Below are positions 7,664-33,734 of a stretch of 64,000 bases of DNA, piece after piece. The stretch is from Patescibacteria group bacterium (lineage in GTDB: Bacteria > Patescibacteriota > Microgenomatia > 2-02-FULL-39-11), in the NCBI GenBank assembly GCA_023379265.1, contig JAMCUI010000007.1, forward strand, positions 14,780 through 78,779, written 5' to 3'. Within the stretch, counting starts at the first letter, position 1. Every line of letters starts with the position of its first letter. Made by a program: the position numbers and the translations under genes. Below the pieces are notes generated by a model. The model was not told the DNA's origin. It did not search any database and was given only the letters and a program-made list of their open reading frames with translations.

Positions 7664-8296
7664 TCAGTTTTCCCTTGCTTTGTGATTCAATTTTATTCCA
7701 GAAAAATTAAGTGAAGACAGAAAAGTTTTTATGGTTTCAGCTGTAAAGAAAGAGATAGGAACTAAAACTACATTGCCTATGAGGTTGTATTTGAAAAAAG
7801 GCAAACCTAAAATATAAGCATCAACTAATCCGGATAATGTTCTTGGATACATACCCCAATTATCCAAAAACCATACGCCGAAATTCGTCCAAAGATAAAA
7901 CCAAAAAGACGCAGCAATACCCACACCTCCTGCCGTTAAAAGCTTAAAAACTAAATTTCTTTCTCCGGCAGCTTTACTTTTGAAATTTAGTTTCAAAATT
8001 CCCATCAAACCAATCACAATATAACCGCTCCATGTGAACATAAATATATTTGTATTTCCAATCAACACATCCGTAACCGCCATAATAAAAAAAGGTACAA
8101 CCAAAGCGTATTTTTTGCCCAAGTATGCAGCTGAAAGAAGAGTTGCTGAGGTAACAAATTCCACATTATCTCCGATATGAAAAACCGTTCTAGAGAGAAT
8201 ACCTAAAATTACTAGGATAAAAGCGAGTAAATATTTTTCTTTATCTTTTCTTCCCATTTTCCTCAAATTAAAATTTAGAATAAATCCATTCGACAT
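7664..8296 (-). CDS. small polytopic membrane protein, ECF-transporter S-component-like (candidate cobalamin/corrinoid substrate-binding component)
   Basis: 210 aa with ~6 predicted TM helices and a short basic C-terminus. Size and topology resemble ECF S components. It overlaps the DUF4430 gene and lies in an operon headed by a cobalamin-riboswitch-like leader. Confidence 0.35.
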   Translation of the reverse strand: MSNGFILNFNLRKMGRKDKEKYLLAFILVILGILSRTVFHIGDNVEFVTSATLLSAAYLGKKYALVVPFFIMAVTDVLIGNTNIFMFTWSGYIVIGLMGILKLNFKSKAAGERNLVFKLLTAGGVGIAASFWFYLWTNFGVWFLDNWGMYPRTLSGLVDAYILGLPFFKYNLIGNVVLVPISFFTAETIKTFLSSLNFSGIKLNHKAREN

Positions 8297-8741
8297 GGTC
8301 TCCTGGATATATCACATATCTATCAGCAGCAATAGTACCCGTTTTCCCATTTACCTTATATATCCAGCCGTATTGTCCACCATTTGCCCTATCGCCAATC
8401 TTGGTCACCATTATTCCGTATTTATACTGTTTTATCTCTATATCTATTTTCTTGTCAGTAGCCAATTTTTTAAGCGCCTGATATACTGTCTGTACGTATA
8501 CCTCGCCTGTTTCATTTTTTCCATTACCAAAATCAATTGACACTATTTCCAAAGATGTTACACTCTGCGTGGGTGACGGCTGCTGTTGATTGCTTAGCTC
8601 TGTGGTTTGAATATTACGGTTTACGATATTTGGTAAATTAATAACCGATTGCTGTTTTTGCAACACATATTGCCCAAAGACAACCAAAATTACTACGATT
8701 AAACCGGTAAATATAAACAATTTTTTTGAATTTCTTTTCAT
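8268..8741 (-). CDS. DUF4430-family (transcobalamin/intrinsic-factor beta-domain-like) secreted protein
   Basis: 157 aa. N-terminal signal anchor. The C-terminal motif GWIYKVNG...YVIYPGDHVEWIYS matches the W-x-Y-x-V-N-G ... D-G-D-x-V-x-W-x-Y signature of DUF4430 proteins, which are found next to ECF/cobalamin transporters. Confidence 0.5.
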   Translation of the reverse strand: MKRNSKKLFIFTGLIVVILVVFGQYVLQKQQSVINLPNIVNRNIQTTELSNQQQPSPTQSVTSLEIVSIDFGNGKNETGEVYVQTVYQALKKLATDKKIDIEIKQYKYGIMVTKIGDRANGGQYGWIYKVNGKTGTIAADRYVIYPGDHVEWIYSKF

Positions 8742-8796: not shown

Positions 8797-11283
8797 TTAA
8801 TTTATTGCTGTTTCTGAAGTAGCAGTGTCGCTAAAACTGTAAATTACTCCAGATAGGAGTATATTTGTTCTAAATCTCTTGTCATTCACTTTTATATTTT
8901 TTGTGTTTGCATTTTTGCCTTGAAATTTTCCTGAAAATAACAGTTTTTCTATTGATTTTACCTGCTGATCTTTGCCTTTTTTATACCATCTCCGGCTATT
9001 TTGACATTGTATTATATGCTGCTTAAGTTTGATAAATAAAACAAGACAATAAATTATAAAAAGAATCTCCCAATATGCTTCCTTATACTTATCCATTTCA
9101 AGATTTGACACCCGGTCTTGCAGTAATAATAACGGTAATAACCCATCTTTTAAGTTTAGGTATTGCTCCTCAAATAAGCTGTCATAACTTTTAAGAAATT
9201 CTATTTTCTCCTGTAACTGGTCTAGATTTTCTTGTGTAAATCTGTCGGAATAATCAGATATAAGCCGTTTCAGCTGAATATAGATAATTGTTGAAACAAG
9301 AAATTTAATCTGTTCGGGCATTTTATCCACTCTAAACACCTCCGTAAGTACTGACAATGAGGTAACAATATCTGAAATATTTTTGAGAATGGAAGGGATC
9401 TCTGGCTTTAAGAATGTCTGATCTCTAGAATCTTTGAGTAAATCTATTATTTCCTCAGTTAGAAATATCAAATCCATATATATTTCTCTTCTACCATTAC
9501 GAGTCAAACTATCCCGTTTTCCTGGATACGTAGCATTATTTTCCCCACATGTAAGAAAAGATTCCAATCTAAAATCATCAAAATATCTGAAAATATGTAC
9601 AAATCTTTCTGTAAAATCTGCATCCCACATCGGTTGAAAAATAAAACCATCCTTTTGAAAAGATGTGCTTTGTGAAATATCAAATCTATATTTATGCGCA
9701 ATAAGGCTATGTAATTTCATAAAGTCTTGCTGCACTTCTTTAGTATTTTGTGATAAACTAAATTCTCCAAATTGTCTACCTAACTTATTGCTATGTTCAG
9801 CGCTAAATTCTTTCTCTTCACTTAACTCTAAAGGTTTATTAGGACTCATCTCGATAATTTGTTTTTCGCTTCGTTTATAGCTCCCGGTCGTGCTTGAAAG
9901 TAGGGTTTTGAGATGACTTCTAGACTGATCTGGATTATGAGAAATCAGAAGAAACTGTTCAAAATTCAGTAATTGTTCTTCTAGTAAATCAATCTCAGCC
10001 AAAGTGTCTTTGACATAATTCCACGGCAATATTTCCTTTCGTTCATTGCTCTTTTCTTCACCATCTAAGATTTCTTTTTCTTCTTTCCCCTCCACGCTCT
10101 TTAACCATTCTTTTTTATCTAAAACATCTACTGGAAACACTTTGGGCAAAACAGTAGCTCCTACTGTATCATCAATCAAACTCCTCATAAAAGCATAAGC
10201 AGCCAACACACGCATCCGGTCTAGAGTATCAATCTCTCTAACCTCCTTGGCAAATTCGGTTTGAGATTTATCAAAATCACTTTTATTATCAGCATAAAAA
10301 TCTATCTCTTTGAAGTTTTCTTCTTTTTTCCTTTCTCTACCGTTTATCCTTTGAGTGGACATTCCATCAGACTCTAGTCTTTTGATACCATTTGTTCCGT
10401 TACCTCTACCTTCTCTAACAAAATCTTCTTCCACCTGTAAAACCAAAGCTTGAGCCATCATCGCAAAAGCTGTCTTTATATTCTTGTCTTTCTCTGCCAT
10501 CTTTTCCATTTCCCCTGCATAAAATTGCTCCTTTGCCTTATTTTCTGACTCTCTTTGGAAATCAGAGATTAATGTTTCCTGCTTAAACTTATCTAAAACG
10601 CTTTTCTCGCTTTCCCTCTTTTCTGCTGAAAACGATTGGGAAAATGATTCAAATATTTCCGTATGGTCAATATTTTTCCCCCGGGATTCAACTAAAACCG
10701 TTTCTTCTTCAATCGTATCGTGACGATCATGTTTTTCTCCAGTTACTCTATCCAAAAAATTCCATAGCGTGTCGCTATCCCCACCTACAGTATATGAAGT
10801 CAATTTGACGGTATCACCTTTTTTCTCTGCCTTATAAATCCTGTTATTTCTTCCGTGAGTATCCTTCGTCTCTTTCCTACTACTCACCCACACTGCAGTT
10901 ATATCAGACTCATCAGAAGCTATCTTATGATATTTATCAATAAGCTGACGATAGGTCTGCCCCCCATTCTCCTTATCATCAATCCATACCTCTGCCGCTT
11001 CTCCTTCCTGTGAGAGCAAAGTGTCCACGAATTCCTCCTGTCCGGAAATTTTATTTCTCACTTTTACATTTTTGCCTATCCTCAATGTAACTTGATTTAT
11101 GACGCTTCCATCGGTACTAAATTCATCCTGATATGTCCTCATATCCCGCGCCATGGCTGATACTGCTTTTTTACCCTCACCCAACCGCTCCATCACGCTA
11201 AAGGCTCTGGCGCTTGATAAATCATGATCTCCAGCTGAACCATTTGTTCCGATTCCCATCGGTGCAATCGCTTCAACCATCAT
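8797..11283 (-). CDS. large uncharacterised protein (828 aa), acidic/charged, single TM near C-terminus; first gene downstream of cobalamin-riboswitch-like leader
   Basis: Long ORF with no signal peptide and one hydrophobic segment (WEILFIIYCLVLFIKL) about 90 aa from the C-terminus. No catalytic motif recognised. Confidence 0.45.
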   Translation of the reverse strand: MMVEAIAPMGIGTNGSAGDHDLSSARAFSVMERLGEGKKAVSAMARDMRTYQDEFSTDGSVINQVTLRIGKNVKVRNKISGQEEFVDTLLSQEGEAAEVWIDDKENGGQTYRQLIDKYHKIASDESDITAVWVSSRKETKDTHGRNNRIYKAEKKGDTVKLTSYTVGGDSDTLWNFLDRVTGEKHDRHDTIEEETVLVESRGKNIDHTEIFESFSQSFSAEKRESEKSVLDKFKQETLISDFQRESENKAKEQFYAGEMEKMAEKDKNIKTAFAMMAQALVLQVEEDFVREGRGNGTNGIKRLESDGMSTQRINGRERKKEENFKEIDFYADNKSDFDKSQTEFAKEVREIDTLDRMRVLAAYAFMRSLIDDTVGATVLPKVFPVDVLDKKEWLKSVEGKEEKEILDGEEKSNERKEILPWNYVKDTLAEIDLLEEQLLNFEQFLLISHNPDQSRSHLKTLLSSTTGSYKRSEKQIIEMSPNKPLELSEEKEFSAEHSNKLGRQFGEFSLSQNTKEVQQDFMKLHSLIAHKYRFDISQSTSFQKDGFIFQPMWDADFTERFVHIFRYFDDFRLESFLTCGENNATYPGKRDSLTRNGRREIYMDLIFLTEEIIDLLKDSRDQTFLKPEIPSILKNISDIVTSLSVLTEVFRVDKMPEQIKFLVSTIIYIQLKRLISDYSDRFTQENLDQLQEKIEFLKSYDSLFEEQYLNLKDGLLPLLLLQDRVSNLEMDKYKEAYWEILFIIYCLVLFIKLKQHIIQCQNSRRWYKKGKDQQVKSIEKLLFSGKFQGKNANTKNIKVNDKRFRTNILLSGVIYSFSDTATSETAIN

Positions 11284-11319
11284 AAGAACTTAGAGAAACT
11301 ACATTTTCATTTAAGCCAA

Positions 11320-11345
11320 TAAAAAACCCTCTATCTCAAGAGGGT
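11320..11345 (-). terminator. intrinsic terminator (riboswitch expression platform)
   Basis: On the minus strand: ACCCUCU-UGAGAUAG-AGGGU hairpin followed by UUUUUUAUU. It lies between the aptamer and the start codon at 11283. Confidence 0.5.
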
Positions 11346-11454
11346 CAAAATGATCAACGAATTCTCAAGTTACCCAATTTCAAACAAGCAAATTATGTGT
11401 ACTTATTGATTGATTGGATAATTGTATTGTTTGTTGATTTATTACTTTCCTGCT

Positions 11455-11575
11455 CGGGATAAACTTGAAGGGGAGTTCCCGGCTTATATCGCAGAAGGCG
11501 AAATTCACGGTTGCGGCACAGTCCCTGATTTTCACAGGGTTCCTCTTTTCCTTCAATAGAGTTGTTAATTTACTT
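11455..11575 (-). ncRNA. cobalamin (B12) riboswitch, short-type aptamer
   Basis: The minus-strand RNA reads GGAACCCUGUGAAAAUCAGGGACUGUGCCGCAACCGUGAA...AAGCCGGGAACUCCCC. This matches the cobalamin riboswitch core GGAA-nnn-GGUG-AAA-UCC...GC-C-CCGCAAC-UGUAA and a B12-box-like AAGCC-GGGA...CCCC. It is followed by a terminator and then a gene. Confidence 0.55.
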
Positions 11576-12154
11576 CGTACTCAACCAGACATTTTCTTTT
11601 ACTTTTGCCATCTTATTAAGATATCTGGCTGTCTCAAAAAAAAGATCCGACAATCTATTTAAGTACACCAAGACTAATCTGTCAACATTGCTTTCTGTAT
11701 TATAAAGTCGCACTACTTCCCTCTCAGCTCTACGGCAGACAGATCGAGCAAGATGGGAAAACGATGCGGCTTTTGTGCCTCCCGGCAATATAAAATTTTT
11801 CAAAGGCTCAAGCTTTTCATCTATACTATCAATTAGCACTTCCATCTCACTATCACGCCCCTTTATGTTAACCAAATCGGATTTTCCAAGCGCCAGATGC
11901 GAACCAATTGAGAGTAAATCAGACTGTATTTTATGGAAAAAATCGGAAAGTTTCTTCTCTTTTTCCAAATGGGAAATAAGAACTCCAACTACAGAATTGA
12001 GCTCGTCAACTGTACCAAAAGCAACAACCCGCAAATTATGCTTCTCGACCCTTGTACCACCGTATAAAGAGGTTTTCCCATCATCACCAGTACGTGTGTA
12101 TATCTTTACTCTATTACCGGTTTTAATACTTCGTTTGGAATTTTTGCTTTTCAC
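11570..12154 (-). CDS. pduO: ATP:cob(I)alamin adenosyltransferase, PduO type
   Basis: 194 aa. N-terminal IYTRTGDDGKTSLYGGTRVEKHNLRVVAFGTVDELNSVVGV matches the PduO/MMAB signature (IYTRTGDxGxTSL...R...YG..DEL). Confidence 0.8.
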   Translation of the reverse strand: MKSKNSKRSIKTGNRVKIYTRTGDDGKTSLYGGTRVEKHNLRVVAFGTVDELNSVVGVLISHLEKEKKLSDFFHKIQSDLLSIGSHLALGKSDLVNIKGRDSEMEVLIDSIDEKLEPLKNFILPGGTKAASFSHLARSVCRRAEREVVRLYNTESNVDRLVLVYLNRLSDLFFETARYLNKMAKVKENVWLSTK

Positions 12155-12184
12155 GGAACCGCCTGTTCTTGTGTATAAAGTGAC

Positions 12185-14515
12185 TTAACATTCACTATAC
12201 CCGCAGCTGTAACACTTTTTACAACCTTCCTCAAAAGCCAACGATGCTTCTCCACATGAAGGACATAAATCATAGTCTGACTTTTCGGCGAGTAACGGCT
12301 GCTGCGTCAGGACTGATATTGTCGTCATACCATTTTGTATCTGATTATGCGCTACGCCATTTCCGTTTTTTATCTTGTAACCAAAATGCATTGCTAGCAC
12401 TTTGGCAACAGCATCCGGTAGTGACCTTACTTTTTTATCACCAAACCCTAAAGATTTTGATCCGCCAATACCGATAAGCTGATTGAATATCTGTTTGGCT
12501 CTTTCACTAGATGGAACGTTGGACTGCATCCTCAGCGCCAATGAAGCCAACCTACCCATAGCTTCTGCCATGGCAGTGACGTCAGATCCGGCCTTTCCGA
12601 CATTAATAAAGATTTCCAACGGTTCATTACTTTCACCGGTATTTATGGTGACAAAGGCCGCTCCAACTGGTGTATCGATCTGATATGTAGCTCCGTTTAC
12701 CATCATCGGTCTTGATTTTATCTGAGCTTTTGCCTCTCCATTGTGTTTTTCTTCCTTCTTCTCTTCAGTTTTTTCCGTAACTCTCTCCAACACTCCCGGC
12801 CTGCTACCATCTCTCATATACGTCATCCCTTTACAACCCAGATCATAAGCCAGACGATAAAGTTTTTGGACGTCTGCTACGGTATGCGTTTTGGGAGCGT
12901 TTACAGTCTTAGAGATAGAAGCATCCACATATTTCTGGATGGCAGCCTGCACCTTTACATGATCCTCAGGAGACAAATCATTGGCTGAGACAAAATATGA
13001 GGGAACAGGATCATTGGGATTCTTCTTTTTCCATTCTTCAAACAGCGGATGATAAAGCCTATGCTCTCCCAACCTGTCACGTCTGATGAACGAAAACTCA
13101 TAAACAGGCTCTATTCCTGAGGATACTCCAGCCAGAAGCGATGTGGAACCTGTTGGTGCTTGCTGTAGAAGAACTGAATTCCTTATGCCCCATTTTTTTA
13201 TTCCGTCCCTAATTTTCTTGGGCAATTGCTTGATAAAATAGCCTTTAAGATGTTTCTTTGTATCAAGTTTGGGAAATGATCCTTTTTCTTTGGCTATTTC
13301 AATTGAAGACTCGTAAGCAGCATCCCTTATTATCCTGTAAATTTTATCTATTATTTTGAGTGACTCGTCAGATCCATATCTAATCTTCATTTTTATCAGG
13401 GCATCTCCCAACCCCATCGTGCCCAAGCCGATACGTCTTTCACCGTTTTGCTGCACTTCCCTTATCTGGGGAAATACGTAAGCATCAGCATCAATTATGT
13501 CATCCTGAAACCTGACGCCAACTTTGGCGATTTCTGCCATTTGCTTGAGATCTATCCTTCCTTCCTCATCAACCAGTGAAGCCAGATTTATTGAGCAAAG
13601 ATTGCAGACTCCCCAGGCGGGTAGACCTTCTTCACCACAAGGATTTACGCAGTTTATCTTATTGAAATACCAATTATTAAACCATTTATTATATCTCTCC
13701 ATAAATACCACACCCGGCTCTGCTGAAGCCCAAGCAGCCTCGGCTATCATATCCCAGATTTTTCTAGCCTTTACTGTCTTCACCACTCTCACTTTTTTCC
13801 CAAGTTTTAACCAATTATCTAGATAACCATCCCATTTGGTATCATATTCCTTATCATTTATATCGGGGAACACCAGATCCCAATCACCATCTTTTTTTAC
13901 CGCATCCATAAATTTATCAGAAACACAAACCGAAAGATTGGCGCCGTTTATTCTGGATAAATCTCTTTTGACGGTAATGAATTCCTCGATATCTGGATGC
14001 CAATCCCACAACATAAGCATGAGGGCTCCACGCCTTGTTCCTCCCTGCTGGATGATATCTTTTGTTGCTACCGAAAAAAGTTCAGCCCAATTGCATGGAC
14101 CCGAAGAAAATCCATTTACCTTCTTCACACGGGAACCACGCGGCCGCAGAGATGAAAGGTTTATACCCACCCCTCCTCCTCTAGCCATAATCTCAACCAT
14201 TTGCTTTAGTGTTTCCAGTATTCCATCACGTGAATCTTTTGGGGAAGGAATAACAAAACAGTTGTAATAAGTTACTTTATATCCTGTTCCTGCTCCTGAT
14301 AGTATCCTTCCTCCAGGAACAAGTTTGAAATTTTCCATAGCATCGTAAAACTTCTTCTCCCAAGATTTTCTTTCTTCAGGCTTTTCCATCTCTGCCACAC
14401 CTCTGGCCACTCTTTTCCATAATTCTTCCGGTGTTTTTTCCTGGGGATTACCTTTATCGTCTTTTAAGGAGTAACGATCTAAAAAGACCTGTTCGCGGAT
14501 GCCTGTTAATTTCAT
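12185..14515 (-). CDS. nrdJ: ribonucleoside-diphosphate/triphosphate reductase, adenosylcobalamin-dependent (class II)
   Basis: 776 aa. Class II active-site region NPCGEEGLPAWGVCNLCSINL, a glycyl-radical-free architecture, and a C-terminal Cys-rich zinc ribbon CPSCG...CKKCYSCGYSEC. Confidence 0.9.
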   Translation of the reverse strand: MKLTGIREQVFLDRYSLKDDKGNPQEKTPEELWKRVARGVAEMEKPEERKSWEKKFYDAMENFKLVPGGRILSGAGTGYKVTYYNCFVIPSPKDSRDGILETLKQMVEIMARGGGVGINLSSLRPRGSRVKKVNGFSSGPCNWAELFSVATKDIIQQGGTRRGALMLMLWDWHPDIEEFITVKRDLSRINGANLSVCVSDKFMDAVKKDGDWDLVFPDINDKEYDTKWDGYLDNWLKLGKKVRVVKTVKARKIWDMIAEAAWASAEPGVVFMERYNKWFNNWYFNKINCVNPCGEEGLPAWGVCNLCSINLASLVDEEGRIDLKQMAEIAKVGVRFQDDIIDADAYVFPQIREVQQNGERRIGLGTMGLGDALIKMKIRYGSDESLKIIDKIYRIIRDAAYESSIEIAKEKGSFPKLDTKKHLKGYFIKQLPKKIRDGIKKWGIRNSVLLQQAPTGSTSLLAGVSSGIEPVYEFSFIRRDRLGEHRLYHPLFEEWKKKNPNDPVPSYFVSANDLSPEDHVKVQAAIQKYVDASISKTVNAPKTHTVADVQKLYRLAYDLGCKGMTYMRDGSRPGVLERVTEKTEEKKEEKHNGEAKAQIKSRPMMVNGATYQIDTPVGAAFVTINTGESNEPLEIFINVGKAGSDVTAMAEAMGRLASLALRMQSNVPSSERAKQIFNQLIGIGGSKSLGFGDKKVRSLPDAVAKVLAMHFGYKIKNGNGVAHNQIQNGMTTISVLTQQPLLAEKSDYDLCPSCGEASLAFEEGCKKCYSCGYSEC

Positions 14516-14566
14516 ACTTTTAATATAAGCTAAATCTTAATAATGACTGACAAAACATGAGACTAT

Positions 14567-15013
14567 TTACAACAATTTATTCAACTCTCTCTCAAAATCT
14601 TCCAAATCTACAAATCTTCTGAAAACTGACGCAAACCTTATATATGCAATCTTGTCTACTTTCTTCAGTTTGTTTGCAACCAGCTGACCTATTTTTTTAC
14701 TGTCAACCTCTGTCGTATCCAAACCTCTCAGTTCTCTTTCTATCTCATCTGTAATCCGCTCTATATCTTCTATTCCAACAAGCGTCTTTTCGCAAGATTT
14801 TATAATCCCGTGTTTCAATTTATCTCTGTCAAACTGCTCTTTTCTCCCATCTTTTTTTATGACAATTATAGGAACACTTTCCACTCTTTCGTATGTGGTA
14901 AATCTTTTCGTACATTTACTACATTCCCTTCTCCTTCTGGTTGTACCCAGATCTTCACTATCTCTTGTTTCAACAACCTCTGTATCGCTATTACTACAAA
15001 ACGGGCATTTCAT
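14567..15013 (-). CDS. nrdR: transcriptional repressor NrdR
   Basis: 148 aa. N-terminal zinc ribbon MKCPFCSNSDTEVVETRDS...CSKC followed by an ATP-cone domain. Confidence 0.9.
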   Translation of the reverse strand: MKCPFCSNSDTEVVETRDSEDLGTTRRRRECSKCTKRFTTYERVESVPIIVIKKDGRKEQFDRDKLKHGIIKSCEKTLVGIEDIERITDEIERELRGLDTTEVDSKKIGQLVANKLKKVDKIAYIRFASVFRRFVDLEDFERELNKLL

Positions 15014-15176
15014 TTTTTATTTATTAATTTTCTTATCAAAAAAAACTGTCTTAAACTATATATTGAGCTTCTAATGGCTAGTTTATAGTATAAAATCCAG
15101 TATTTTCAGTAATATTTTGGCAATATTTAGTCGTTTTTGGCGCATAAAAAACACGCGTTTGCGTGAAAAACTTTCA

Positions 15177-15192
15177 ACCCTATCTATAGTGT
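15177..15192. promoter_or_regulatory. candidate NrdR box upstream of nrdR
   Basis: ACCCTATCTATAGTGT matches the NrdR-box consensus acaCwAtATaTwGtgt at about 14 of 16 positions. A weaker second site is at about 15053-15067 (AAACTATATATTGAG). The spacing is not canonical. Confidence 0.25.
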
Positions 15193-15380
15193 TCAAAACT
15201 ATACTATGACCCTAAATAGACACTGTCAAGAAGACAAATTATATCAAACGACATCAGTTTAAAAATCAGCCTCAGGAAAATTTTTTTTCTTATAATGGCC
15301 GTATTTTCTTTAGTCTTTCTTTTCGTTTGTGAAAACACTTTTTCAGTTGGAAAATTATTGTATCCAAAAAACAGCTAATA

Positions 15381-16855: not shown

Positions 16856-18424
16856 TTATTCCCACTCCATTGTTGCAGGAGGTTTGGTAGTGATATCGTA
16901 GACTACTCTTACTACTTCAAAAACTTCAGTGACAATCCTTTCTGAAATTCTTGCCAGAACTTCATACGGTAAACGTACCCAATCAGCAGTCATTGTATCT
17001 TTTGACTCTATTGCTCTAATGGCGATTGTTTCTCCGTATTTTCTTTCATCACCTGCAACACCCGTAGATTTTACTCCAGTCAGAATGGCAAAAGACATCC
17101 ATATATCTTCATAAAGTCCAGCTTTTTTTATCTCCTCCACTACAATCTTGTCCGCTTTTCTCAAAATTTCCAATTTTTCTTTTGTCACCTCACCAATAAC
17201 CCTAACTCCCAGACCGGGACCTGGAAAGACATGTCTGGAAATCATTTCTTTAGGAAATCTTAGTGTTTTTGCTATATCGCGAACTTCATCCTTATACAAT
17301 GTTCTTAGAGGTTCAACTATACGGAAACCGTGTTTTGCAGGAATCCCTCCTACATTGTGATGGGTTTTAATTTTCTGGGCATGCTTTGTACCCTTACTTT
17401 CGATCACGTCAGGATATATGGTCCCCTGAACTAATATTTTTGCGCCCGACTTTTTTGATTCTCTCTCAAACACTCTTATAAATGTCTCCCCTATTACCTT
17501 TCTTTTCTGCTCAGGATCAACAACTCCTCTTAATCTTTTCAAAAAATCTCCTTCAGCGTTTATAACTTTAACAGGCAACTTTAATTTATACTTAAAAGTA
17601 TTTTTTATCTCCTCCGTCTCCCCAAAACGCATAAGTCCGGTATCTACATAAAAACATGTCAGGTTTTTACCAATTGCCTGGTATGTAAGATACGCCGCCA
17701 CACTAGAATCAATACCTCCGGAAAGAGCACAAACTACTTTATTATTTCCGATTTGTTTCTTTAGTTCTGTGATTTTCTCCCCAATAAATTTTTGAAGTTT
17801 TTTCTCCTCAGGCCGTAATCCTGTTAAAGTCGACTTATCTCCTGAAGGATTTTCTTTACATATACGGATAACAAAATTTTCCAAAATGTCGGGACCGTAC
17901 TCTGTATGATGAACCTCGGGATGGAATTGAATTCCATAAAATTTTCTTTTTTCATCTGCAAATGCAGCCACTTCCACTGAAGGGGTAGAACCGGTAATAA
18001 AAGCTCCCTCCGGGGGTTTTAACACTTGATCAAAATGGCTCATCCAAACTGTAAAGTTTTTTTTCTTTTTTTCCCATCCAGCAAAAAGTGAATTATTTTT
18101 TGTGAGAGTAAAACTAGTTGGACCGTATTCTTTTTTCTTTCCCGGCATTACCTTTCCCTTAAGCTGCTGACCCATAATCTGCAAACCATAACAAATTCCC
18201 AATACGGGAATTTTAGCCTGGAAAATTTTTGGGTCCGGTAGAAGAGCATTCTTCCCATAAACTGATGAAGGTCCGCCTGAGAGGATTATCCCATTTGGTT
18301 TACATTCTTTTATTTTGGAAACAGCTCTCTTTGGTAGAACTATTTGCATTGCAACCCCCATCTCGCGGATACGTCTGCCTATAAGGTGACATGTCTGGGA
18401 CCCAAAATCGATTATGAGAATCAT
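16856..18424 (-). CDS. guaA: GMP synthase (glutamine-hydrolysing)
   Basis: 522 aa. N-terminal class I GATase (GICYGLQ), PP-loop SGGIDSSV, and the C-terminal dimerisation domain ending ...TKPPATMEWE. Confidence 0.9.
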   Translation of the reverse strand: MILIIDFGSQTCHLIGRRIREMGVAMQIVLPKRAVSKIKECKPNGIILSGGPSSVYGKNALLPDPKIFQAKIPVLGICYGLQIMGQQLKGKVMPGKKKEYGPTSFTLTKNNSLFAGWEKKKKNFTVWMSHFDQVLKPPEGAFITGSTPSVEVAAFADEKRKFYGIQFHPEVHHTEYGPDILENFVIRICKENPSGDKSTLTGLRPEEKKLQKFIGEKITELKKQIGNNKVVCALSGGIDSSVAAYLTYQAIGKNLTCFYVDTGLMRFGETEEIKNTFKYKLKLPVKVINAEGDFLKRLRGVVDPEQKRKVIGETFIRVFERESKKSGAKILVQGTIYPDVIESKGTKHAQKIKTHHNVGGIPAKHGFRIVEPLRTLYKDEVRDIAKTLRFPKEMISRHVFPGPGLGVRVIGEVTKEKLEILRKADKIVVEEIKKAGLYEDIWMSFAILTGVKSTGVAGDERKYGETIAIRAIESKDTMTADWVRLPYEVLARISERIVTEVFEVVRVVYDITTKPPATMEWE

Positions 18425-18439
18425 AATTTTTGCTCTTTG

Positions 18440-19522
18440 TTATTTGTTCTCTGTTATTTGAACAATATCATGCGGATGGCTCTCAATAAGAGAAGATTGG
18501 GTAATACGCATCAGTCTTGAATTCTCTTGAAGCTCAGAAATACTTTTTACCCCCGCATAATACATGCCGGAACGCAAACCTCCTACAAGTTGCGTCACAA
18601 CATCTTCAACGCCTCCTTTTATAGGTACTGCACCTTCTATACCTTCTGCAACTAGCTTTTTTTCCTGACCGCGCCTATATTCCTGTCCGTAACGGGAGCT
18701 ACTTCCCTCTTTCATCGCGGCTACAGACCCCATCCCTCTGTATTTTTTATATTTTTGTCCGTTTATTGTCATCACTTTTCCCGGTGATTCGGTACATCCG
18801 GCAAAAAGAGAACCGGCCATGACAGTTGAAGCTCCTGCTGCCAATGCTTTTACAATATCTCCTGAAAAGCGCAAGCCCCCGTCAGAAATAACAGGTATAT
18901 TAAACCTTTTTGCAATAGACACAGTTTCCAAAACTGCCGTAATCTGTGGCACTCCCATACCGGCTACGATTCTCGTGGTACAGATTGAACCCGGGCCCAT
19001 ACCTACTCGGATTGCCTGGGCTCCTGCTTCTATAAGAGCTTTTGCTCCAGCGGCTGTTGCTATACTTCCGGATATAAGAGCGATGTCTTTATATTCATTA
19101 GCAATAAAACTTGTCGCTTCAATTACCCACTTGGAAAAACCGTGTGCACTGTCAACTACTAAAACGTCAACCCCAGCGTCACTTAAACCCATAACTCTCT
19201 CTTTCAAATCGTCACCCACTCCAACGGCAGCCGCCGCAAAAAGACCTACATTCTTTACTATCTTTACCTCTTGTGCCTGTTTTTCAATTGACAGATTTCT
19301 ATGGATTACTCCAAGACCGCCTAGCTTCCCCATAGCTATGGCAAGTTTGGATGTGGTTACAGTATCCATTGGTGAAGAAATAATGGGAATATCAAGTCGT
19401 ACATTACCAGCCAATCTTGAAGAAATATCTATATCCCCTCTTTTCACCTGTGCGTAGTTTGGCAAAAGAAGAACATCGTCAAAAGTCAAACCTGTGTTTT
19501 CAACAATTTTTTGTTGGTCCAT
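18440..19522 (-). CDS. guaB: IMP dehydrogenase lacking the CBS subdomain
   Basis: 360 aa. Catalytic loop GMGPGSICTTRIVAGMGVPQ. Flap/finger region RYGQEYRRGQEKKLVAEGIEGAVPIKG, which is IMPDH-like rather than GuaC-like. There is no insertion where the CBS pair normally sits. Confidence 0.75.
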   Translation of the reverse strand: MDQQKIVENTGLTFDDVLLLPNYAQVKRGDIDISSRLAGNVRLDIPIISSPMDTVTTSKLAIAMGKLGGLGVIHRNLSIEKQAQEVKIVKNVGLFAAAAVGVGDDLKERVMGLSDAGVDVLVVDSAHGFSKWVIEATSFIANEYKDIALISGSIATAAGAKALIEAGAQAIRVGMGPGSICTTRIVAGMGVPQITAVLETVSIAKRFNIPVISDGGLRFSGDIVKALAAGASTVMAGSLFAGCTESPGKVMTINGQKYKKYRGMGSVAAMKEGSSSRYGQEYRRGQEKKLVAEGIEGAVPIKGGVEDVVTQLVGGLRSGMYYAGVKSISELQENSRLMRITQSSLIESHPHDIVQITENK

Positions 19523-19562
19523 AATTAGATTTTTCGGAATTAATAATCTAAAATATCTTTGG

Positions 19563-20567
19563 TTAAACCGATTTGCTTCTTATAAAACTAGCTTCCTTTG
19601 CTTTTTGCGATGCTTTATTCAAATCTTCTAAACTTAGTATATTATTGTCCAAAAGTGTCTGGTATTCATTAAGCAAATTTGTCCTCAACATCTCCGGACC
19701 ATCGGTGTTAACAGTAAATGCAACTCCTTGTTCTTTTAAAATAGCAAAAATATTTTTAAAATCGGACAGGTTTTTTACTACCCTTGTGTTTAGATTTGAT
19801 GTAGGACAAACCTCAAGAACAATATTTCTGTTTTTCAACTCTAAAAGCACATTTTTATCCTCTACTGCCCTAACACCATGACCGATTCTGTCCGGTTCTA
19901 GAAGTTTAATGGTGCGCATCATCTCATCAGCCCCTGTTGCTTCACCAGTATGGATTGTCACTCCGAGTCCTACCCTCTTACATGCTTTTATCGGCTCAAC
20001 CAAAGTTTCCATGCTAAACTGTGGATCAATTGGTCCGGCCAAATCTATTCCTATTACGCCCCGTCTCGCATACTTTACCGCTTTTTCGGCAATTATGGAA
20101 TTTAGTTTTTGGGAAAACCTGCGGTCACACATAAGAATCAGTCCTATCCTCATGGGATATGAAAGCATCGCTCTTTCCATACTGTGAATACTTGAAAGGA
20201 TAATATGGTCCAGATCTCTTTCCCCGCCGCGGTTTCTCAGCATAGGATTGAAACGAATTTCAAGAGTTGTAATACCGTTTTTGCGATAAGCTCCGGAAGC
20301 GATAGAATAAATGCTTTTTTCCATCGCTTCAGGCGAGGATTGAATAAGTTCCGTCCAGTGGAAAAGGTCAAGATATTTTTTGTAGTTGGTATCGTCAGAT
20401 ACAGTAATAAGTTTTTCAAAATCCCAGTAGTTTTTAGTTGGCAGTCTTATCCCCTGCTCCTGGGCTATTTCCCACATGATGGGTGGGTCTACAGCTGATC
20501 CTATATGAACATGCAGCTCCGTCAGTTCTCCGAATTTTTTCGCAGCTGTATCCATATTATTTTTCAT
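19563..20567 (-). CDS. add: adenosine deaminase family metal-dependent hydrolase
   Basis: 334 aa. N-terminal LTELHVHIGS (the HxH metal site), HTGEA motif, and a C-terminal D...D consistent with adenosine/adenine deaminase. Confidence 0.7.
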   Translation of the reverse strand: MKNNMDTAAKKFGELTELHVHIGSAVDPPIMWEIAQEQGIRLPTKNYWDFEKLITVSDDTNYKKYLDLFHWTELIQSSPEAMEKSIYSIASGAYRKNGITTLEIRFNPMLRNRGGERDLDHIILSSIHSMERAMLSYPMRIGLILMCDRRFSQKLNSIIAEKAVKYARRGVIGIDLAGPIDPQFSMETLVEPIKACKRVGLGVTIHTGEATGADEMMRTIKLLEPDRIGHGVRAVEDKNVLLELKNRNIVLEVCPTSNLNTRVVKNLSDFKNIFAILKEQGVAFTVNTDGPEMLRTNLLNEYQTLLDNNILSLEDLNKASQKAKEASFIRSKSV

Positions 20568-20967
20568 TCTCCAGATATTTTACTAAATTTTGGGGAGAAA
20601 CGACTGCTTTGACAAAATTAGTCACGGTAATATCCTTAATTTTTGCTCTGGCAAAAATGGGTTTTTCAAGAGCCAATGAATAACCGATCTCCACTGTAAC
20701 GGCAGGACCCAGATACGAACCCTGGTTGAATATATAGATAACATCACTTTTCCTGATATTCTCTAAATGCGAAAAAGCCCCCTCCCCTTCCCACTTTGTC
20801 AGAGTAGCTTTATCGTATTTCGTTTTCAACTCTTGCGGCTTGTGCCCGTGTCTGACATGTGAAGGCTGTGGAACTATTACCGTAAACCCTTTTCCCCGAA
20901 GTAATTTTGCCACATTCTCCATCTGGTTATAAAATTTAAAACTGCCGCAGAAACAGATTGTTTTCAT
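20557..20967 (-). CDS. nucleoside 2-deoxyribosyltransferase-like protein
   Basis: 136 aa. The C-terminal AVTVEIGYSLALEKPIF resembles the nucleophile-Glu motif (GTAFEIGYA..GKP) of N-deoxyribosyltransferase/DNPH1-like proteins. It sits next to purine salvage genes. Confidence 0.45.
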   Translation of the reverse strand: MKTICFCGSFKFYNQMENVAKLLRGKGFTVIVPQPSHVRHGHKPQELKTKYDKATLTKWEGEGAFSHLENIRKSDVIYIFNQGSYLGPAVTVEIGYSLALEKPIFARAKIKDITVTNFVKAVVSPQNLVKYLENEK

Positions 20968-22687: not shown

Positions 22688-23491
22688 CTATTTATCAATG
22701 AGATATAAATGATGGAGAGGCCCGTGTCCTTTTCCAATATTTAATCCAACGGAATATTTCAACGCTTCCGAGATATATCTTTTGGCTATTTTGACTGCTT
22801 GAGGTAAACTTTTACCTTTGGCGAGTTCTGCTGCGATAGCTGAAGAGAAAGTACATCCTGTACCGTGAGTATTTTTTGTTTCTATTCTTTTTTCATCAAA
22901 AATATGGAATGATTTTCCGTCATAAAGAATATCTATGGAATTTTTACTTTCTGGCAAATGCCCACCTTTAACAATTACATTTTTAGGGCCCATTTTTTTG
23001 AGAAACACAGCGGCTTTTTTCATTTCTGATATTTCCCTCACTTCAATTCCCAGCATAGCTTTGACTTCGTGAAGATTGGGAGTAATGACAAATGATAAAG
23101 GAAAAAGATATTTTATAAGTGTCGACTGAGCATCTTTTTTTAATAACCTATCCCCGCTTTTTGCGACCATGACAGGATCAACAACAATAGGGATTTCCTT
23201 ATATTTCTTCAGTCCAGAAGCGACTGTTTTTATTATTTGATTACTAGCTAACATACCGATTTTTATGACATCCGGCTTCAGATCTTCCATTACCGATTTT
23301 ATCTGCTCTGTCACAATAGATATTGGCAACTCAAAAACTCTCTGCACCCCAATAGTATTTTGGGCCGTAATGGCAGTAATAACACTCATTCCATAAACTC
23401 TTCTTGCGGCAAAAGTTTTCAAGTCCGCCTGGATACCTGCTCCCCCGCCGCTATCTGACCCTGCAATAGTCAATACTTTTTTTAGTTGCAT
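22688..23491 (-). CDS. thiD: hydroxymethylpyrimidine/phosphomethylpyrimidine kinase
   Basis: 267 aa. N-terminal LTIAGSDSGGGAGIQADLKTFAA signature of ThiD. Confidence 0.85.
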   Translation of the reverse strand: MQLKKVLTIAGSDSGGGAGIQADLKTFAARRVYGMSVITAITAQNTIGVQRVFELPISIVTEQIKSVMEDLKPDVIKIGMLASNQIIKTVASGLKKYKEIPIVVDPVMVAKSGDRLLKKDAQSTLIKYLFPLSFVITPNLHEVKAMLGIEVREISEMKKAAVFLKKMGPKNVIVKGGHLPESKNSIDILYDGKSFHIFDEKRIETKNTHGTGCTFSSAIAAELAKGKSLPQAVKIAKRYISEALKYSVGLNIGKGHGPLHHLYLIDK

Positions 23492-23536
23492 AAATTCTAA
23501 ATATCATGCCAAACTTGTTTCGGCATCTCGTTAATA

Positions 23537-24568
23537 TTAACTAGATTCTGAAACAAGTTTAGGAAGACTTAAAATATGATCCCAACTCTCCAATTTTAAT
23601 CGTATGCGTTTACCATCACTATTAACTAACCAACTTCCTTCTTTTTCTGGCAAAATTTTACCGATTATGTTCACATTTGTGTTTGTCTTTTTTTTAATTT
23701 TAGAAATTAAGAGTTCTGTATTCTTTTTACTAACGGTAAATAATAATTCGTAATCTTCTCCTCCGTTAAGAGCTAAATCATATGGATTCTTTTTAATAGA
23801 TTTAGCAAATTCCAACATGTCTTTGGCAACCGGAAGCTTATCCTCATATATCTCAACTCCGACTCTACTTCTCTCACAAATGTGACCTATGTCACCGCTT
23901 AATCCGTCACTTACATCAATCATTGCTGTTGCCATATGACTGGCGGCAATTAATTTTGACTCGCCAATTCTGGGATTTGGGGCCAGCTGTCTCTGCAATA
24001 ATCTTTTAGTTTTTACCAATAAAAATTTTCTATCTTTGGCTATAAAAAGACCCGCAGCAGCATCTCCCAACGTACCAGTTACTAAAACGTTATCTCCAAT
24101 ATTTGCGCCGGACCGTAAAAGCAGATCCCTCTTTTTTACTTTTCCCAGCATAAAAATATCAATTGCCCAATCTTTTCCCGAAGATATATTTCCTCCTGCC
24201 ACCTGTATATTGTATTTATTACAAGCTATATCTATTCCTCTATAAATTCTTTGAACAAAATCGGTAGAGATATTCTTGGGCAAAATCAGAGAAATCAGAC
24301 AGACGGTGGGTAACCCGCCCATTGCGGCAATATCGCTAATGTTTATTGCAATTGCTTTGTGGCCGATATTTTCCGGCTCCAAATTTTCCAAAACAAAATG
24401 TCTGCCCGCAACCTGTATATCACAAGTTACCAGCTCAAGATAATTTTTATCAAAAGACAAAACTGCACAGTCATCACCGATTCCCACAATTACATCACGA
24501 TTCTTTACTTTCAACTCTGACGTAAGCTTTTTAATTAACTCAAATTCACCAGGTAACTTAAGCGGCAT
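23537..24568 (-). CDS. thiL: thiamine-monophosphate kinase
   Basis: 343 aa. GEFELI...IGDDCAVL...HF motif of the AIR-synthase-related ThiL family. Confidence 0.8.
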   Translation of the reverse strand: MPLKLPGEFELIKKLTSELKVKNRDVIVGIGDDCAVLSFDKNYLELVTCDIQVAGRHFVLENLEPENIGHKAIAINISDIAAMGGLPTVCLISLILPKNISTDFVQRIYRGIDIACNKYNIQVAGGNISSGKDWAIDIFMLGKVKKRDLLLRSGANIGDNVLVTGTLGDAAAGLFIAKDRKFLLVKTKRLLQRQLAPNPRIGESKLIAASHMATAMIDVSDGLSGDIGHICERSRVGVEIYEDKLPVAKDMLEFAKSIKKNPYDLALNGGEDYELLFTVSKKNTELLISKIKKKTNTNVNIIGKILPEKEGSWLVNSDGKRIRLKLESWDHILSLPKLVSESS

Positions 24569-25367
24569 ATATTTTTGCTCCCTTTGCCAGTTGGCTCGGG
24601 CTCATATTATATAAAGTATCAAGAAGAGCGATTTTGAAACTAGCCGGGCCTTTTGCATTTTTAGCTGCGATTTCAGCAGCATAACCATAACATGCAAGCG
24701 CTGCAGAAGATGCAAAAGCATAATTCTTTTCTACTGCACAAAAAGCAGCCACCATGGTAGTAGACATACAACCTGTTCCGGTGTTCGTCGAAAGCCATTG
24801 GTCACCGTTATCAACAAAATATGTTTCTTTTCCAGAAGATACAATGTCGCGCTTTCCCGTAATAACCACAACTGTCTTATATTTTTTAGCTAGACTTTGT
24901 GCTACTTTCACTGGGTCCTTTATGCCTTCAACGCTTTCCACTCCTTTTACTTTACCTCCTGCACCAGCCACAGCACCTATCTCTCCGTGGTTTCCCCTCA
25001 ATACTGCTATTTCCAATTTACTTAATAGCTCAAGTGAAGTACTGGAACGCAATTTAGTAGCGCCTGCCCCAACTGGGTCAAGTATAATCGGAATCCTCAT
25101 GCTGTTTGCTTTTCTTCCAGCAATAAACATTGATTCAATCCATTCTTTTGATAATGTTCCAATATTTAAAACCAATGCGTTTGCAATACCTGTCATTTCC
25201 TTCATCTCTTCCCTTGCATGGGCCATGACTGGAAGAGCTCCCACATGCAGTGTGACATTTGCCGTATCATTCATCACGACAAAATTAGTAATATGGTGCA
25301 GAAGCGGTCTTTTTTCTCTCACTCTTTTTAATATTTCTCCTGCTCCTTGATTTAATTTTTTATCCAT
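24558..25367 (-). CDS. thiM: hydroxyethylthiazole kinase
   Basis: 269 aa. ITNFVVMNDTANVTLHVGALPVMAH and Gly-rich ATP-binding segments typical of ThiM. Confidence 0.8.
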   Translation of the reverse strand: MDKKLNQGAGEILKRVREKRPLLHHITNFVVMNDTANVTLHVGALPVMAHAREEMKEMTGIANALVLNIGTLSKEWIESMFIAGRKANSMRIPIILDPVGAGATKLRSSTSLELLSKLEIAVLRGNHGEIGAVAGAGGKVKGVESVEGIKDPVKVAQSLAKKYKTVVVITGKRDIVSSGKETYFVDNGDQWLSTNTGTGCMSTTMVAAFCAVEKNYAFASSAALACYGYAAEIAAKNAKGPASFKIALLDTLYNMSPSQLAKGAKIYAA

Positions 25368-25405
25368 AACTCTCCTAATAATTAAATTTAATAATTTATA
25401 TAAAA

Positions 25406-26038
25406 TTAACTTTTCGCTTCACTAACTATTTTTTTTAATTTTTCTGCAGCTAATTTCGGTTCATTTACCAGAAATACTGCAGATATTACGGCAATTCCAT
25501 CGGCTCTCGCCCGTATTACTTGATTTGCATTTTCCAAAGTTACTCCTCCTATTCCTACAATGGGAATTTTTACCACTTTTTTAATTTTTTTAAGCATGCC
25601 AATCCCGACAGGCTTACCTGTATCTGTTTTAGTTGTGGAGCCGAAAATGTCACTTACACCCAAATAGTCAGCCCCGTCTTTGACTGCTTTTTTTGCTTCT
25701 ACCACATTGCTCGCTGTAACCCCCAATATTTTTTCCCGTCCGATAATCTGTCGGACAATATTTGCTGGCATATCGCTTTGCCCCACATGTACTCCTTCAG
25801 CATCAATTGCCAATGCCACATCAATCCTGTCGTCAATGATAAGAGGAATACCCGCTTTCGTTGTAATTTTATGAAGAGCTCTACCTTCTTCAATCATCAG
25901 TCGTGTGGAAGCATTTTTTTCCCTATATTGCACAATTGTCACTCCACCTTCTATTGCTAATGCAACAATTGAAAGGACTGATTTTTTTCCGGCCAAATTC
26001 TTGTCAGTGACCAAATAAAGACTGTAGTCAATATTCAT
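25406..26038 (-). CDS. thiE: thiamine-phosphate synthase
   Basis: 210 aa. YLVTD...VQYREK...GADYLGV motifs of ThiE. Confidence 0.85.
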   Translation of the reverse strand: MNIDYSLYLVTDKNLAGKKSVLSIVALAIEGGVTIVQYREKNASTRLMIEEGRALHKITTKAGIPLIIDDRIDVALAIDAEGVHVGQSDMPANIVRQIIGREKILGVTASNVVEAKKAVKDGADYLGVSDIFGSTTKTDTGKPVGIGMLKKIKKVVKIPIVGIGGVTLENANQVIRARADGIAVISAVFLVNEPKLAAEKLKKIVSEAKS

Positions 26039-27353: not shown

Positions 27354-27380
27354 ATGGATTCGTCGCTTTGCTTCTCACAT

Positions 27381-27405
27381 AAAAAAACCATTCCGCAAGG
27401 AATGG
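27381..27405 (-). terminator. intrinsic terminator (TPP riboswitch expression platform)
   Basis: On the minus strand: CCAUUCC-UUGC-GGAAUGG followed by UUUUUUUAU, immediately 5' of the cytX start. Confidence 0.6.
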
Positions 27406-27520
27406 CTGTATATTTTCCCTGCGTTGGCATTATCCAAATCAGGTTATATGGGTCATCCCGATATATTTCGAGAACTCTCAGCCTGATTTCCATCAAGCTC
27501 CCCATTTAATAATTAATATT
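27405..27520 (-). ncRNA. TPP (THI-box) riboswitch
   Basis: Minus-strand RNA contains GGGGAGC...GGCUGAGA...GAUGACCC...AACCUGAUUUGGAUAAUGCCAACGCAGGGA. This is a near-consensus THI element (CUGAGA; ACCUGAUCUGGAUAAUGCCAGCGUAGGGA). Confidence 0.85.
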
Positions 27521-33627: not shown

Positions 33628-33734
33628 TCTCATACGCTAATAAACACCTCATCAACTGTTCTCACGAAATAGGAAATCTAGTAAATAATATTAGTCTTTA
33701 ACTTTCCCCTCACTCTTTACACACCCTATAATGT

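Follow-up and report, generated by a model that had tools for sequence, protein, structure and literature searches.

We analyzed a 64-kb stretch of DNA from a Patescibacteria group bacterium (GenBank contig JAMCUI010000007.1, positions 14,780 to 78,779; referred to here as the window, in whose coordinates all positions are given). On its minus strand, nrdR, the gene of a transcriptional repressor, precedes nrdJ, which encodes a class II ribonucleotide reductase (RNR), and pduO, which encodes a corrinoid adenosyltransferase; a cobalamin riboswitch and candidate corrinoid uptake genes follow on the same strand. The genome belongs to the Candidate Phyla Radiation (CPR; Microgenomates type) and has a GC content of ∼38%. 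The window NrdJ is also encoded on a Logan metagenome contig, and nearly all relatives of this protein in the genome collection come from Candidatus Gottesmanbacteria, with those of Levy- and Roizmanbacteria being more distant. For comparison, we used 80 related loci of ∼18 kb each, which are named by L numbers; L001 is the window's own Logan contig, and the most closely related genome is L002, with 99% identity in NrdJ.

The nrdR-nrdJ-pduO gene cluster

The product of nrdR (14567 to 15013, minus strand, as are all features below unless marked otherwise) is a 148-residue protein of the dATP/ATP-sensing repressor type, with a zinc ribbon and an ATP cone. It scores 185.7 bits against TIGR00244 (cutoff, 124.65), and its domains match PF22811 (Zn_ribbon_NrdR) at 64 bits and PF03477 (ATP-cone) at 69 bits. 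The zinc ribbon cysteines C3, C6, C31, and C34 are all present, and the protein aligns end to end with the solved NrdR proteins of Escherichia coli and Streptomyces coelicolor (E = 8e-36).

The second gene, nrdJ (12185 to 14515), encodes a 776-residue class II RNR, predicted to be of the adenosylcobalamin-dependent type. The protein reaches 569 bits against TIGR02504 (cutoff, 400), contains the Pfam lgN (all-alpha), lgC (barrel), and TSCPD domains, and has no ATP-cone. Residues C86, N291, C293, E295, and C304 align with C134, N320, C322, E324, and C333 of Thermotoga maritima NrdJ, that is, with the redox cysteine pair, the thiyl cysteine, and the Asn and Glu of the active enzyme; by this alignment, the nrdJ product is predicted to be catalytically intact. 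Its last 28 residues hold six cysteines in the pattern C-x2-C-x10-C-x2-C-x2-C-x4-C. A cysteine-rich zinc/redox C-terminal domain is found in most class II RNRs (Loderer et al.; PMC5704485), and the six-cysteine tail fits this published pattern of a cysteine-rich zinc domain.

The third gene, pduO (11570 to 12154), starts with GTG, a start also called by the gene caller of the Logan assembly, and encodes a 194-residue PduO-type ATP:cob(I)alamin adenosyltransferase. The protein scores 180.7 bits against TIGR00636 (cutoff, 108.45) and matches PF01923 at 1.4e-55. It aligns with solved corrinoid adenosyltransferases (E = 2e-34) and keeps both the ATP motif YTRTGDDGKTS and the RRAER motif.

A first-pass annotation of this DNA, made without database searches, had described nrdR, a class II nrdJ, and pduO as consecutive on one strand with gaps of 30 to 50 bp, and NrdJ as ending in a zinc ribbon. 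The family scores and coordinates agree with this description, the gaps measure 51 nt (nrdR-nrdJ) and 30 nt (nrdJ-pduO), and the zinc ribbon corresponds to the six-cysteine tail. A terminator scan of both spacers found none, and the three genes look co-transcribed.

The arrangement is widely shared. Among the related loci, nrdR is directly upstream of nrdJ in 77 of 79, and pduO follows nrdJ within 400 bp in 62 of 73 and is slightly farther away in several others. By these counts, the trio is a stable trait of this CPR class, not a peculiarity of a single genome. The order nrdR-nrdJ-pduO-riboswitch is kept across Gottesman-, Levy-, and Roizmanbacteria. One gottesmanbacterial locus (L081, 5900 to 10763) has an nrdJ frame of ∼4.8 kb, versus the usual 2.3 kb, and its tblastn match is split, a pattern that suggests one or more inteins or insertions.

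Predicted NrdR boxes at the operon promoter

The first-pass annotation had also noted NrdR-box-like palindromes upstream of nrdR and had singled out the one at 15177 to 15192. We scanned the window with a position weight matrix (PWM) built from 10 boxes experimentally bound by E. coli and S. coelicolor NrdR (Table 1 of PMC13584703), and thus from unrelated organisms (E. coli and Streptomyces). The singled-out site, ACACTATAGATAGGGT (15177 to 15192; box 2), falls within the 367 bp preceding nrdR and is the top-scoring 16-mer of the whole 64 kb on either strand, at 14.4 bits. On its own, this score is borderline because 6.5% of simulated 64-kb sequences reach it. Box 2 has two mismatches to ACACWATATATWGTGT and keeps five of the six key positions (C4, A6, A8, T11, and G13), with G at position 9; the central AG is shared with box 2 of E. 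coli nrdAB, an NrdR-bound site. The same sequence, or nearly so, is found in L002 to L015.

The scan added a partner, AGTGTCTATTTAGGGT (15209 to 15224; box 1), a degenerate predicted box that scores 1.9 bits (98.8th percentile). Four of its six key positions are kept (A8, T9, T11, and G13), with C4 replaced by G and A6 by C, and its right half-site is kept clade-wide at the same spacing, with the consensus ..aTTTAGTGT. Boxes 1 and 2 are 32 bp apart, center to center, with a 16-bp linker; an NrdR operator requires two boxes with a linker of 15 to 16 bp (PMC13584703). The nrdR-nrdJ spacer holds no box, as had been claimed (PWM maximum, −1.8 bits), and the maximum in the nrdJ-pduO spacer is 5.5 bits.

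Both boxes coincide with a sigma-70-type promoter (15201 to 15229) that matches the consensus at 10 of 12 positions. Its −35 hexamer, TTGACA (15229 to 15224), is separated by a 17-nt spacer from the −10 hexamer, TAGTAT (15206 to 15201). Box 1 is inside the promoter spacer, its left half overlapping the −35 hexamer, and the −10 hexamer is followed 9 nt later by box 2. From these positions, the promoter spacer is filled by box 1, and the start region lies under box 2. Placing boxes over the promoter is the usual way in which NrdR occludes RNA polymerase.

The decisive support for an NrdR operator comes from the related loci, not from the score of a single box. The best box pair of each ∼18-kb locus lies ≤350 bp upstream of nrdR in 60 of 77 loci (∼2% would be expected from position), and the spacing of these 60 pairs is nearly always 32 bp. 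The box sequences drift among the ∼60 loci, with C4, A6, T11, and G13 retained. The promoter is conserved along with them: 63 of 77 loci have TTGA[CTA] next to the 5′ end of box 1, and 57 of the 63 also carry TAnn[AC]T in the first 10 nt of the linker. The shared architecture runs TTTGATATAg-N10-TTGAC-box 1 (..aTTTAGTGT) and continues as TAGgAT-N8-box 2 (GCACCAnATATAGyGT)-..TTTCAC, the last motif being found 6 to 10 nt past box 2 in 49 of 77 loci. On this comparative evidence, tandem predicted NrdR boxes overlap the conserved operon promoter.

Farther upstream, the motif TTTGATATAAT (15238 to 15248) resembles TGnTATAAT and lies ∼10 nt ahead of the −35 hexamer. Its general form is TTTGATATA(A/G), and the form in the window, TGATATAAT, is a perfect extended −10 element. 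In 60 of 77 loci, the pattern TGAT[AC][TC]A is found no more than 45 nt ahead of box 1; the motif may be a second promoter, an UP-like element, or a site for another factor.

Between box 2 and nrdR, the terminator scan found an inverted repeat (15146 to 15165) of the form CACGC-AAAC-GCGTG, with six T's and then ATG after it. Among the 16 closest sequences, this hairpin is present in 12 (L001 and 11 relatives), with loops of 4 to 14 nt, and is absent from L004, L006, L008, and L010. A covariation test found no compensatory double changes in it, so that an RNA structure is not proven, and the degree of structure of the entire leader is unexceptional (z = −0.24).

Three other box-like candidates were set aside. 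The candidate at 15053 to 15068 has all six key positions and is probably nonfunctional because it has no partner at 31 to 32 bp and is not conserved (it differs in L002 and is absent from other relatives). A candidate at 33721 to 33736 precedes a gene for a class A penicillin-binding protein, not an RNR gene, and overlaps a TATAAT-like sequence; we judged it to be a chance match. The window's best-scoring pair, CGACAACATATGTCGC and GCACAACATGTCGAGC (61655 to 61702, plus strand), reaches 19.1 bits at 32-bp spacing, a score seen in 0.5% of simulated windows. It lies inside the low-complexity coding sequence of a 497-residue PrgI-family open reading frame (ORF) and is probably also due to chance.

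A cobalamin riboswitch directly after pduO

A cobalamin riboswitch aptamer with a conserved 3′ tail occupies 11448 to 11569. The Rfam RF00174 match (11453 to 11569) reaches 32.8 bits, with a gathering score of 31.5 (local E = 8.6e-7), and begins one base past the pduO stop codon; the tail, AUCCCGAGCAGGA, spans 11460 to 11448. At the same position, L018 scores 40.2 bits. When eight relatives were searched with Rfam at the gathering threshold, a riboswitch was reported in one, and nhmmer found the same element after pduO in ∼40 loci. Of the 80 loci, 52 contain the core 12-mer CTGTGCCGCAAC (∼0.15 expected by chance), which is always on the operon strand and stands directly after pduO in 43 of these 52. 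It is invariant in a 30-sequence aptamer alignment, in which four pairs of one stem covary, with 7 to 18 sequences showing double changes per pair.

All riboswitch copies share the 3′ tail AUCCCGAGCAGGAG. In many relatives, the AGGAG of this tail is followed after 5 to 9 nt by the ATG of the regulated gene, a spacing that indicates translational control. The window subclade has, in place of this Shine-Dalgarno (SD) sequence and ATG, a spacer of ∼100 nt and an intrinsic terminator after the tail. In the window, this platform terminator, GACCCTCT-TGAGAT-AGAGGGTT plus a T run (11318 to 11346), is ∼40 nt upstream of the start of an 828-residue ORF; hairpins of the type CCCTCT...AGAGGG plus T6-7 are present in L002, L003, L009, L012, L013, L014, L018, L027, L039, and L041.

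Riboswitches normally sit in the 5′ leaders of primary transcripts. Here, the aptamer lies between −10 and +50 nt from the pduO stop in most loci, with no terminator in between, and only 5 of 42 loci have a sigma-70-like motif within 130 nt ahead of the aptamer, compared with 5.7% of control windows inside nrdJ. The absence of a conserved promoter before the aptamer and its abutment on the pduO stop suggest that the riboswitch is an internal gate of one transcript. The first-pass annotation had assigned it to a next operon that the pduO stop abuts. The abutment is real, to within one base, and a separate operon is the less likely reading: the element is probably an internal conditional terminator of the nrdR-nrdJ-pduO transcript.

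Copy number and placement vary in some relatives. L036 and L055 have the riboswitch core between nrdJ and pduO, where pduO itself would be under B12 control, and L049 and L075 have two riboswitch copies each.

Genes downstream of the riboswitch

The first gene past the riboswitch (8797 to 11283; NCBI locus tag M1271_01510) encodes an orphan 828-residue protein, which matched nothing in sequence and profile searches of Pfam, NCBIfam, and the PDB. Iterative profile searches recovered a family, which we call P828, of 33 ORFs of 590 to 836 residues at the same position (32 related loci and the window gene). The family has 56 representatives among 1.84e9 clustered proteins, and two word-indexed homologue searches with the 828-residue protein returned four proteins. 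P828 proteins evolve fast. Their conserved part is the N-terminal ∼290 residues, an alpha/beta domain, and the C terminus consists of a conserved helix, a Lys/Arg-rich stretch, and a GVIFAY tail. The orphan protein lacks both a signal peptide and a clear transmembrane helix. Its AlphaFold2 (AF2) model is poor (predicted local distance difference test [pLDDT] score of 42, with values of 60 to 85 at residues 22 to 290 only); Foldseek matches to bacteriophytochrome GAF/PHY domains were weak (E = 0.07), and we assigned no fold.

Within Gottesmanbacteria, P828 is the most consistent target of the riboswitch. Its ATG is 6 to 8 nt after the AGGAG of the riboswitch tail in L023, L029, L064, L051, and L031, and a riboswitch copy lies between the DUF4430/DUF6580 gene pair described below and the P828 gene in L049, L051, and L031. 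Since the ATG follows the riboswitch SD sequence and riboswitch copies sit in front of the gene, P828 appears to be a direct riboswitch target. The P828 gene is always succeeded by genes for a 160-residue protein and a VirD4/TraD-like coupling ATPase.

Two further genes of the window are candidates for corrinoid uptake. The first (8268 to 8741) encodes a DUF4430 protein that resembles the transcobalamin beta domain (PF14478 at 2.2e-11) and has an N-terminal membrane anchor, with a hydrophobic segment at residues 4 to 29; by its sequence, it is a candidate extracytoplasmic corrinoid binder. In Lactobacillus, transcobalamin-like proteins accompany cobalamin-type transporters of the energy-coupling factor (ECF) class. 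The second (7664 to 8296) encodes a DUF6580 membrane protein (PF20221 at 3.3e-30), one homologue of which also matches PF12822. Its AF2 model (pLDDT, 90) has the fold of an ECF S component: the top Foldseek matches in the PDB are ThiT, RibU, BioY, CbiM, BtuM, and FolT, with template modeling (TM) scores of 0.5 to 0.65 and probabilities of 0.7 to 1.0. The modeled fold makes the DUF6580 protein a candidate corrinoid transporter. PDB sequence searches with the DUF6580 (E ≤ 1) and DUF4430 proteins gave no match. In the window, the DUF6580 gene is followed by those for the 160-residue protein and then the VirD4/TraD-like ATPase, and no intergenic terminators were found among the genes downstream of the riboswitch. 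Corrinoid import by the riboswitch-controlled genes is plausible, given that both a DUF4430 protein and a protein with an S-component fold are under the riboswitch.

B12 and nucleotide supply

The first-pass annotation had stated that no class I or III RNR is visible in the window and had proposed that deoxynucleoside triphosphate (dNTP) synthesis depends entirely on imported corrinoid. The former statement is upheld by Pfam scans of the 46 larger ORFs across the 64-kb window, in which we found no other RNR genes, NrdB- or NrdG-type domains, or cob/cbi genes. Genes for B12 sensing, probable import, and activation adjoin nrdJ in dozens of genomes, which suggests that B12 supply is a real constraint on replication in this lineage.

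Just upstream of the RNR operon, a group of salvage genes (16856 to 20967, minus strand) encodes GMP synthase, IMP dehydrogenase, adenosine deaminase, and a nucleoside 2-deoxyribosyltransferase-like protein. The last of these (20557 to 20967, minus strand) matches PF05014 at 29.0 bits, with a cutoff of 28.8, and could provide an RNR-independent route to deoxynucleotides.

A second riboswitch-controlled vitamin salvage unit is present in the window (22688 to 27514, minus strand). A thiamine pyrophosphate (TPP) riboswitch (27398 to 27514; 65 bits) heads a thiamine salvage operon with genes for a cytosine/purine/thiamine-type permease, ThiE, ThiM, an aminoimidazole ribonucleotide (AIR)-synthase-related, ThiL-like protein, and ThiD.

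A model of the locus and its alternatives

We propose that the locus is one NrdR-autoregulated unit of Candidatus Gottesmanbacteria that joins a B12-dependent dNTP-producing enzyme to the means of loading its cofactor, and we give this reading a probability of about three in four. As judged from the known NrdR mechanism, a rise of dATP relative to ATP would lead an NrdR tetramer to bind both boxes and block RNA polymerase, shutting off nrdR itself, nrdJ, and pduO; when ATP dominates, NrdR would leave the DNA. PduO, if it acts as its family does, would use cob(I)alamin, imported and reduced, to make adenosylcobalamin, which serves NrdJ as its radical cofactor. Corrinoid bound to the riboswitch would let the terminator at 11346 to 11318 end the transcript after pduO. 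Without ligand, transcription would continue into the 828-residue, DUF4430, and DUF6580 genes, presumably for corrinoid acquisition, so that expression of the uptake genes would require both a demand for dNTPs and a shortage of B12. The most far-reaching version, in which the internal riboswitch makes a two-input gate for dNTP and cofactor status and P828 is a new corrinoid acquisition factor, possibly exported or delivered to a host via a type IV-like machine, is speculative, and we consider it rather improbable.

Several observations weigh against the proposed unit. At the operator, box 1 is weak at 1.9 bits, is without C4 and A6, and has a left half that is inseparable from the −35 hexamer; the nrdR start is 179 nt downstream of box 2, farther than in most relatives. 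The hairpin between the boxes and nrdR is terminator-like and, if efficient, would limit read-through. Past pduO, the Rfam score of the aptamer is just 1.3 bits over the gathering threshold, and a promoter-like sequence, TTGAGA-16-TAAGAT (11637 to 11610), lies in the 3′ end of pduO. Among the uptake candidates, the tie of the 828-residue protein to B12 is one of position alone, and an ECF energizing module (EcfA/A′/T) was not found among the annotated window ORFs; such a module may be encoded elsewhere, or the DUF6580 protein may act alone, like BtuM.

Four competing explanations were weighed. The palindromes could be elements of the promoter or of another factor, with a likeness to NrdR boxes that is coincidental in AT-rich DNA. 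The score of box 2, reached by 6.5% of simulated sequences, the weakness of box 1, and the equally good-looking pair in coding DNA at 61655 to 61702 would all fit such a coincidence. However, the boxes sit exactly upstream of nrdR, their 32-bp spacing is kept in ∼60 loci while the sequences drift around C4, A6, T11, and G13, and the PWM that finds them derives from unrelated E. coli and Streptomyces boxes; we regard coincidence as highly improbable. The leader hairpin (15165 to 15146) could be an attenuator and so a second layer of control, for example, by NTP-sensitive termination. In favor of this are its intrinsic-terminator shape, its conservation in 12 of the 16 closest sequences, the replacement of the 4-nt loop by a longer hairpin in L005, and the G·U pairs of L007 and L015, which work only in the sense RNA. 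On the other hand, it shows no compensatory double changes, it is missing from the four relatives listed above, and the leader's z score is unremarkable; moreover, in L005, L011, L013, and L015 the T run ends 2 to 14 nt before the nrdR start codon, where efficient termination fits poorly. We consider an attenuator rather unlikely; the repeat may instead be an inert remnant or a protein operator.

The remaining two explanations concern how far the unit extends and how much depends on it. If the locus comprised two operons, the riboswitch-led uptake genes would be transcribed from a promoter inside the 3′ end of pduO. The match at 11637 to 11610, ∼40 nt upstream of the aptamer, and the usual location of riboswitches in 5′ leaders are in line with this, but that match is absent from L002, promoter-like motifs in 5 of 42 loci are close to the coding-sequence control rate, and the aptamer abuts the pduO stop in most loci with no terminator between them. 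Two operons are, in our view, unlikely, and we favor the single transcript with an internal riboswitch. Alternatively, another RNR of class I or III elsewhere in the genome, or deoxynucleoside salvage, could make B12 helpful and not obligatory. The window covers 64 kb of a genome of ∼1 Mb, a 2-deoxyribosyltransferase-like gene and purine salvage genes are nearby, and CPR bacteria are known for nucleotide salvage. Against a second route stand the lack of a second RNR in the window, the PWM's singling out of this promoter alone as a conserved site, and the presence of a whole B12-handling chain beside nrdJ in dozens of reduced genomes. This is a serious possibility that we still lean against.

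Other features of the window

Tandem genes for class A penicillin-binding proteins with transglycosylase and transpeptidase domains, of 749 and 791 residues, lie at 31378 to 36110 (plus strand); the palindrome ACACCCTATAATGTGT, which is NrdR-box-like and overlaps a TATAAT sequence, precedes the second of them. A ClpB-like ATPase of 1,443 residues (56512 to 60843, minus strand) has an N-terminal extension of ∼160 residues and ∼350 residues without a Pfam match between its second AAA and D2-small domains.

Significance and comparison with known systems

The genomes of CPR bacteria (Patescibacteria) are tiny, and the organisms are believed to live at the expense of other cells; information on their cofactor needs helps to explain such dependencies and may aid culture. 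As a clean natural test case, the locus lends itself to the study of NrdR operators in a deep-branching lineage, and it permits a test of a riboswitch that is possibly internal to an operon. For P828, an unannotated family, direct control by a B12 riboswitch is the sole functional clue. Each part of the locus is of a known type, and the current understanding of RNR regulation is unchanged.

Single components resemble well-studied counterparts to different degrees. The five catalytic residues of NrdJ align with those of T. maritima NrdJ (PDB 1XJE), with the core scoring 266 bits, and the six-cysteine pattern is that of the NrdJd-type cysteine-rich C-terminal domain; in the window NrdJ, the tail is kept fused and there is no ATP-cone. 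Like the riboswitches of RF00174 uptake operons (btuB, btuFCD), those studied here have a conserved aptamer core and covarying stems, and their OFF-type platforms act through a terminator or SD sequestration, as predicted from their layout. Unlike in those operons, the aptamer lies one base past the stop of a co-oriented gene, without a conserved promoter of its own, and the P6 extension is short or absent in most copies. The DUF6580 protein has the small S-component fold of BtuM, a solitary S component (TM score, 0.54 by query and 0.59 by target), and like BtuM it may work without an adjacent ECF module. In contrast to BtuM, in which a cysteine is the cobalt ligand, the DUF6580 alignment has no invariant cysteine, and sequence similarity between the two is undetectable.

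The closest precedents for the arrangement as a whole are two. In S. coelicolor, nrdRJ is an NrdR-autoregulated class II RNR operon (PMC13584703). As there, nrdR is directly upstream of nrdJ in one (here, predicted) operon, and two 16-bp boxes with a linker of 15 to 16 bp overlap the promoter upstream of nrdR, with none between nrdR and nrdJ. The window differs in adding pduO, the cobalamin riboswitch, uptake genes, and a leader hairpin, and its box 1 is more degenerate. S. coelicolor also has a class I nrdAB, unlike this CPR bacterium as far as its RNR genes were searched for, that is, within the window.

Lactobacillus delbrueckii, a B12 auxotroph, has an nrdJ-cbrS-cbrT-pduO cluster with the ECF-CbrT transporter (PMC5997447). 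The two loci have in common a class II RNR, PduO, and an S-component-type transporter (a candidate here). In the window, however, the orphan 828-residue gene is interposed and no ECF A/T module was seen, and the published description of the L. delbrueckii cluster mentions neither nrdR nor a riboswitch. DUF6580 and CbrT can be compared by fold only, since the DUF6580 protein has no sequence match to any solved structure, that of CbrT included. Searches of the accessible literature library found no description of this arrangement in CPR bacteria. With S. coelicolor nrdRJ and the L. delbrueckii cluster as precedents, neither the nrdR-nrdJ operon nor the linkage of nrdJ, pduO, and a transporter is new; the window merges both layouts, and to these it adds a riboswitch, probably one internal to the operon.

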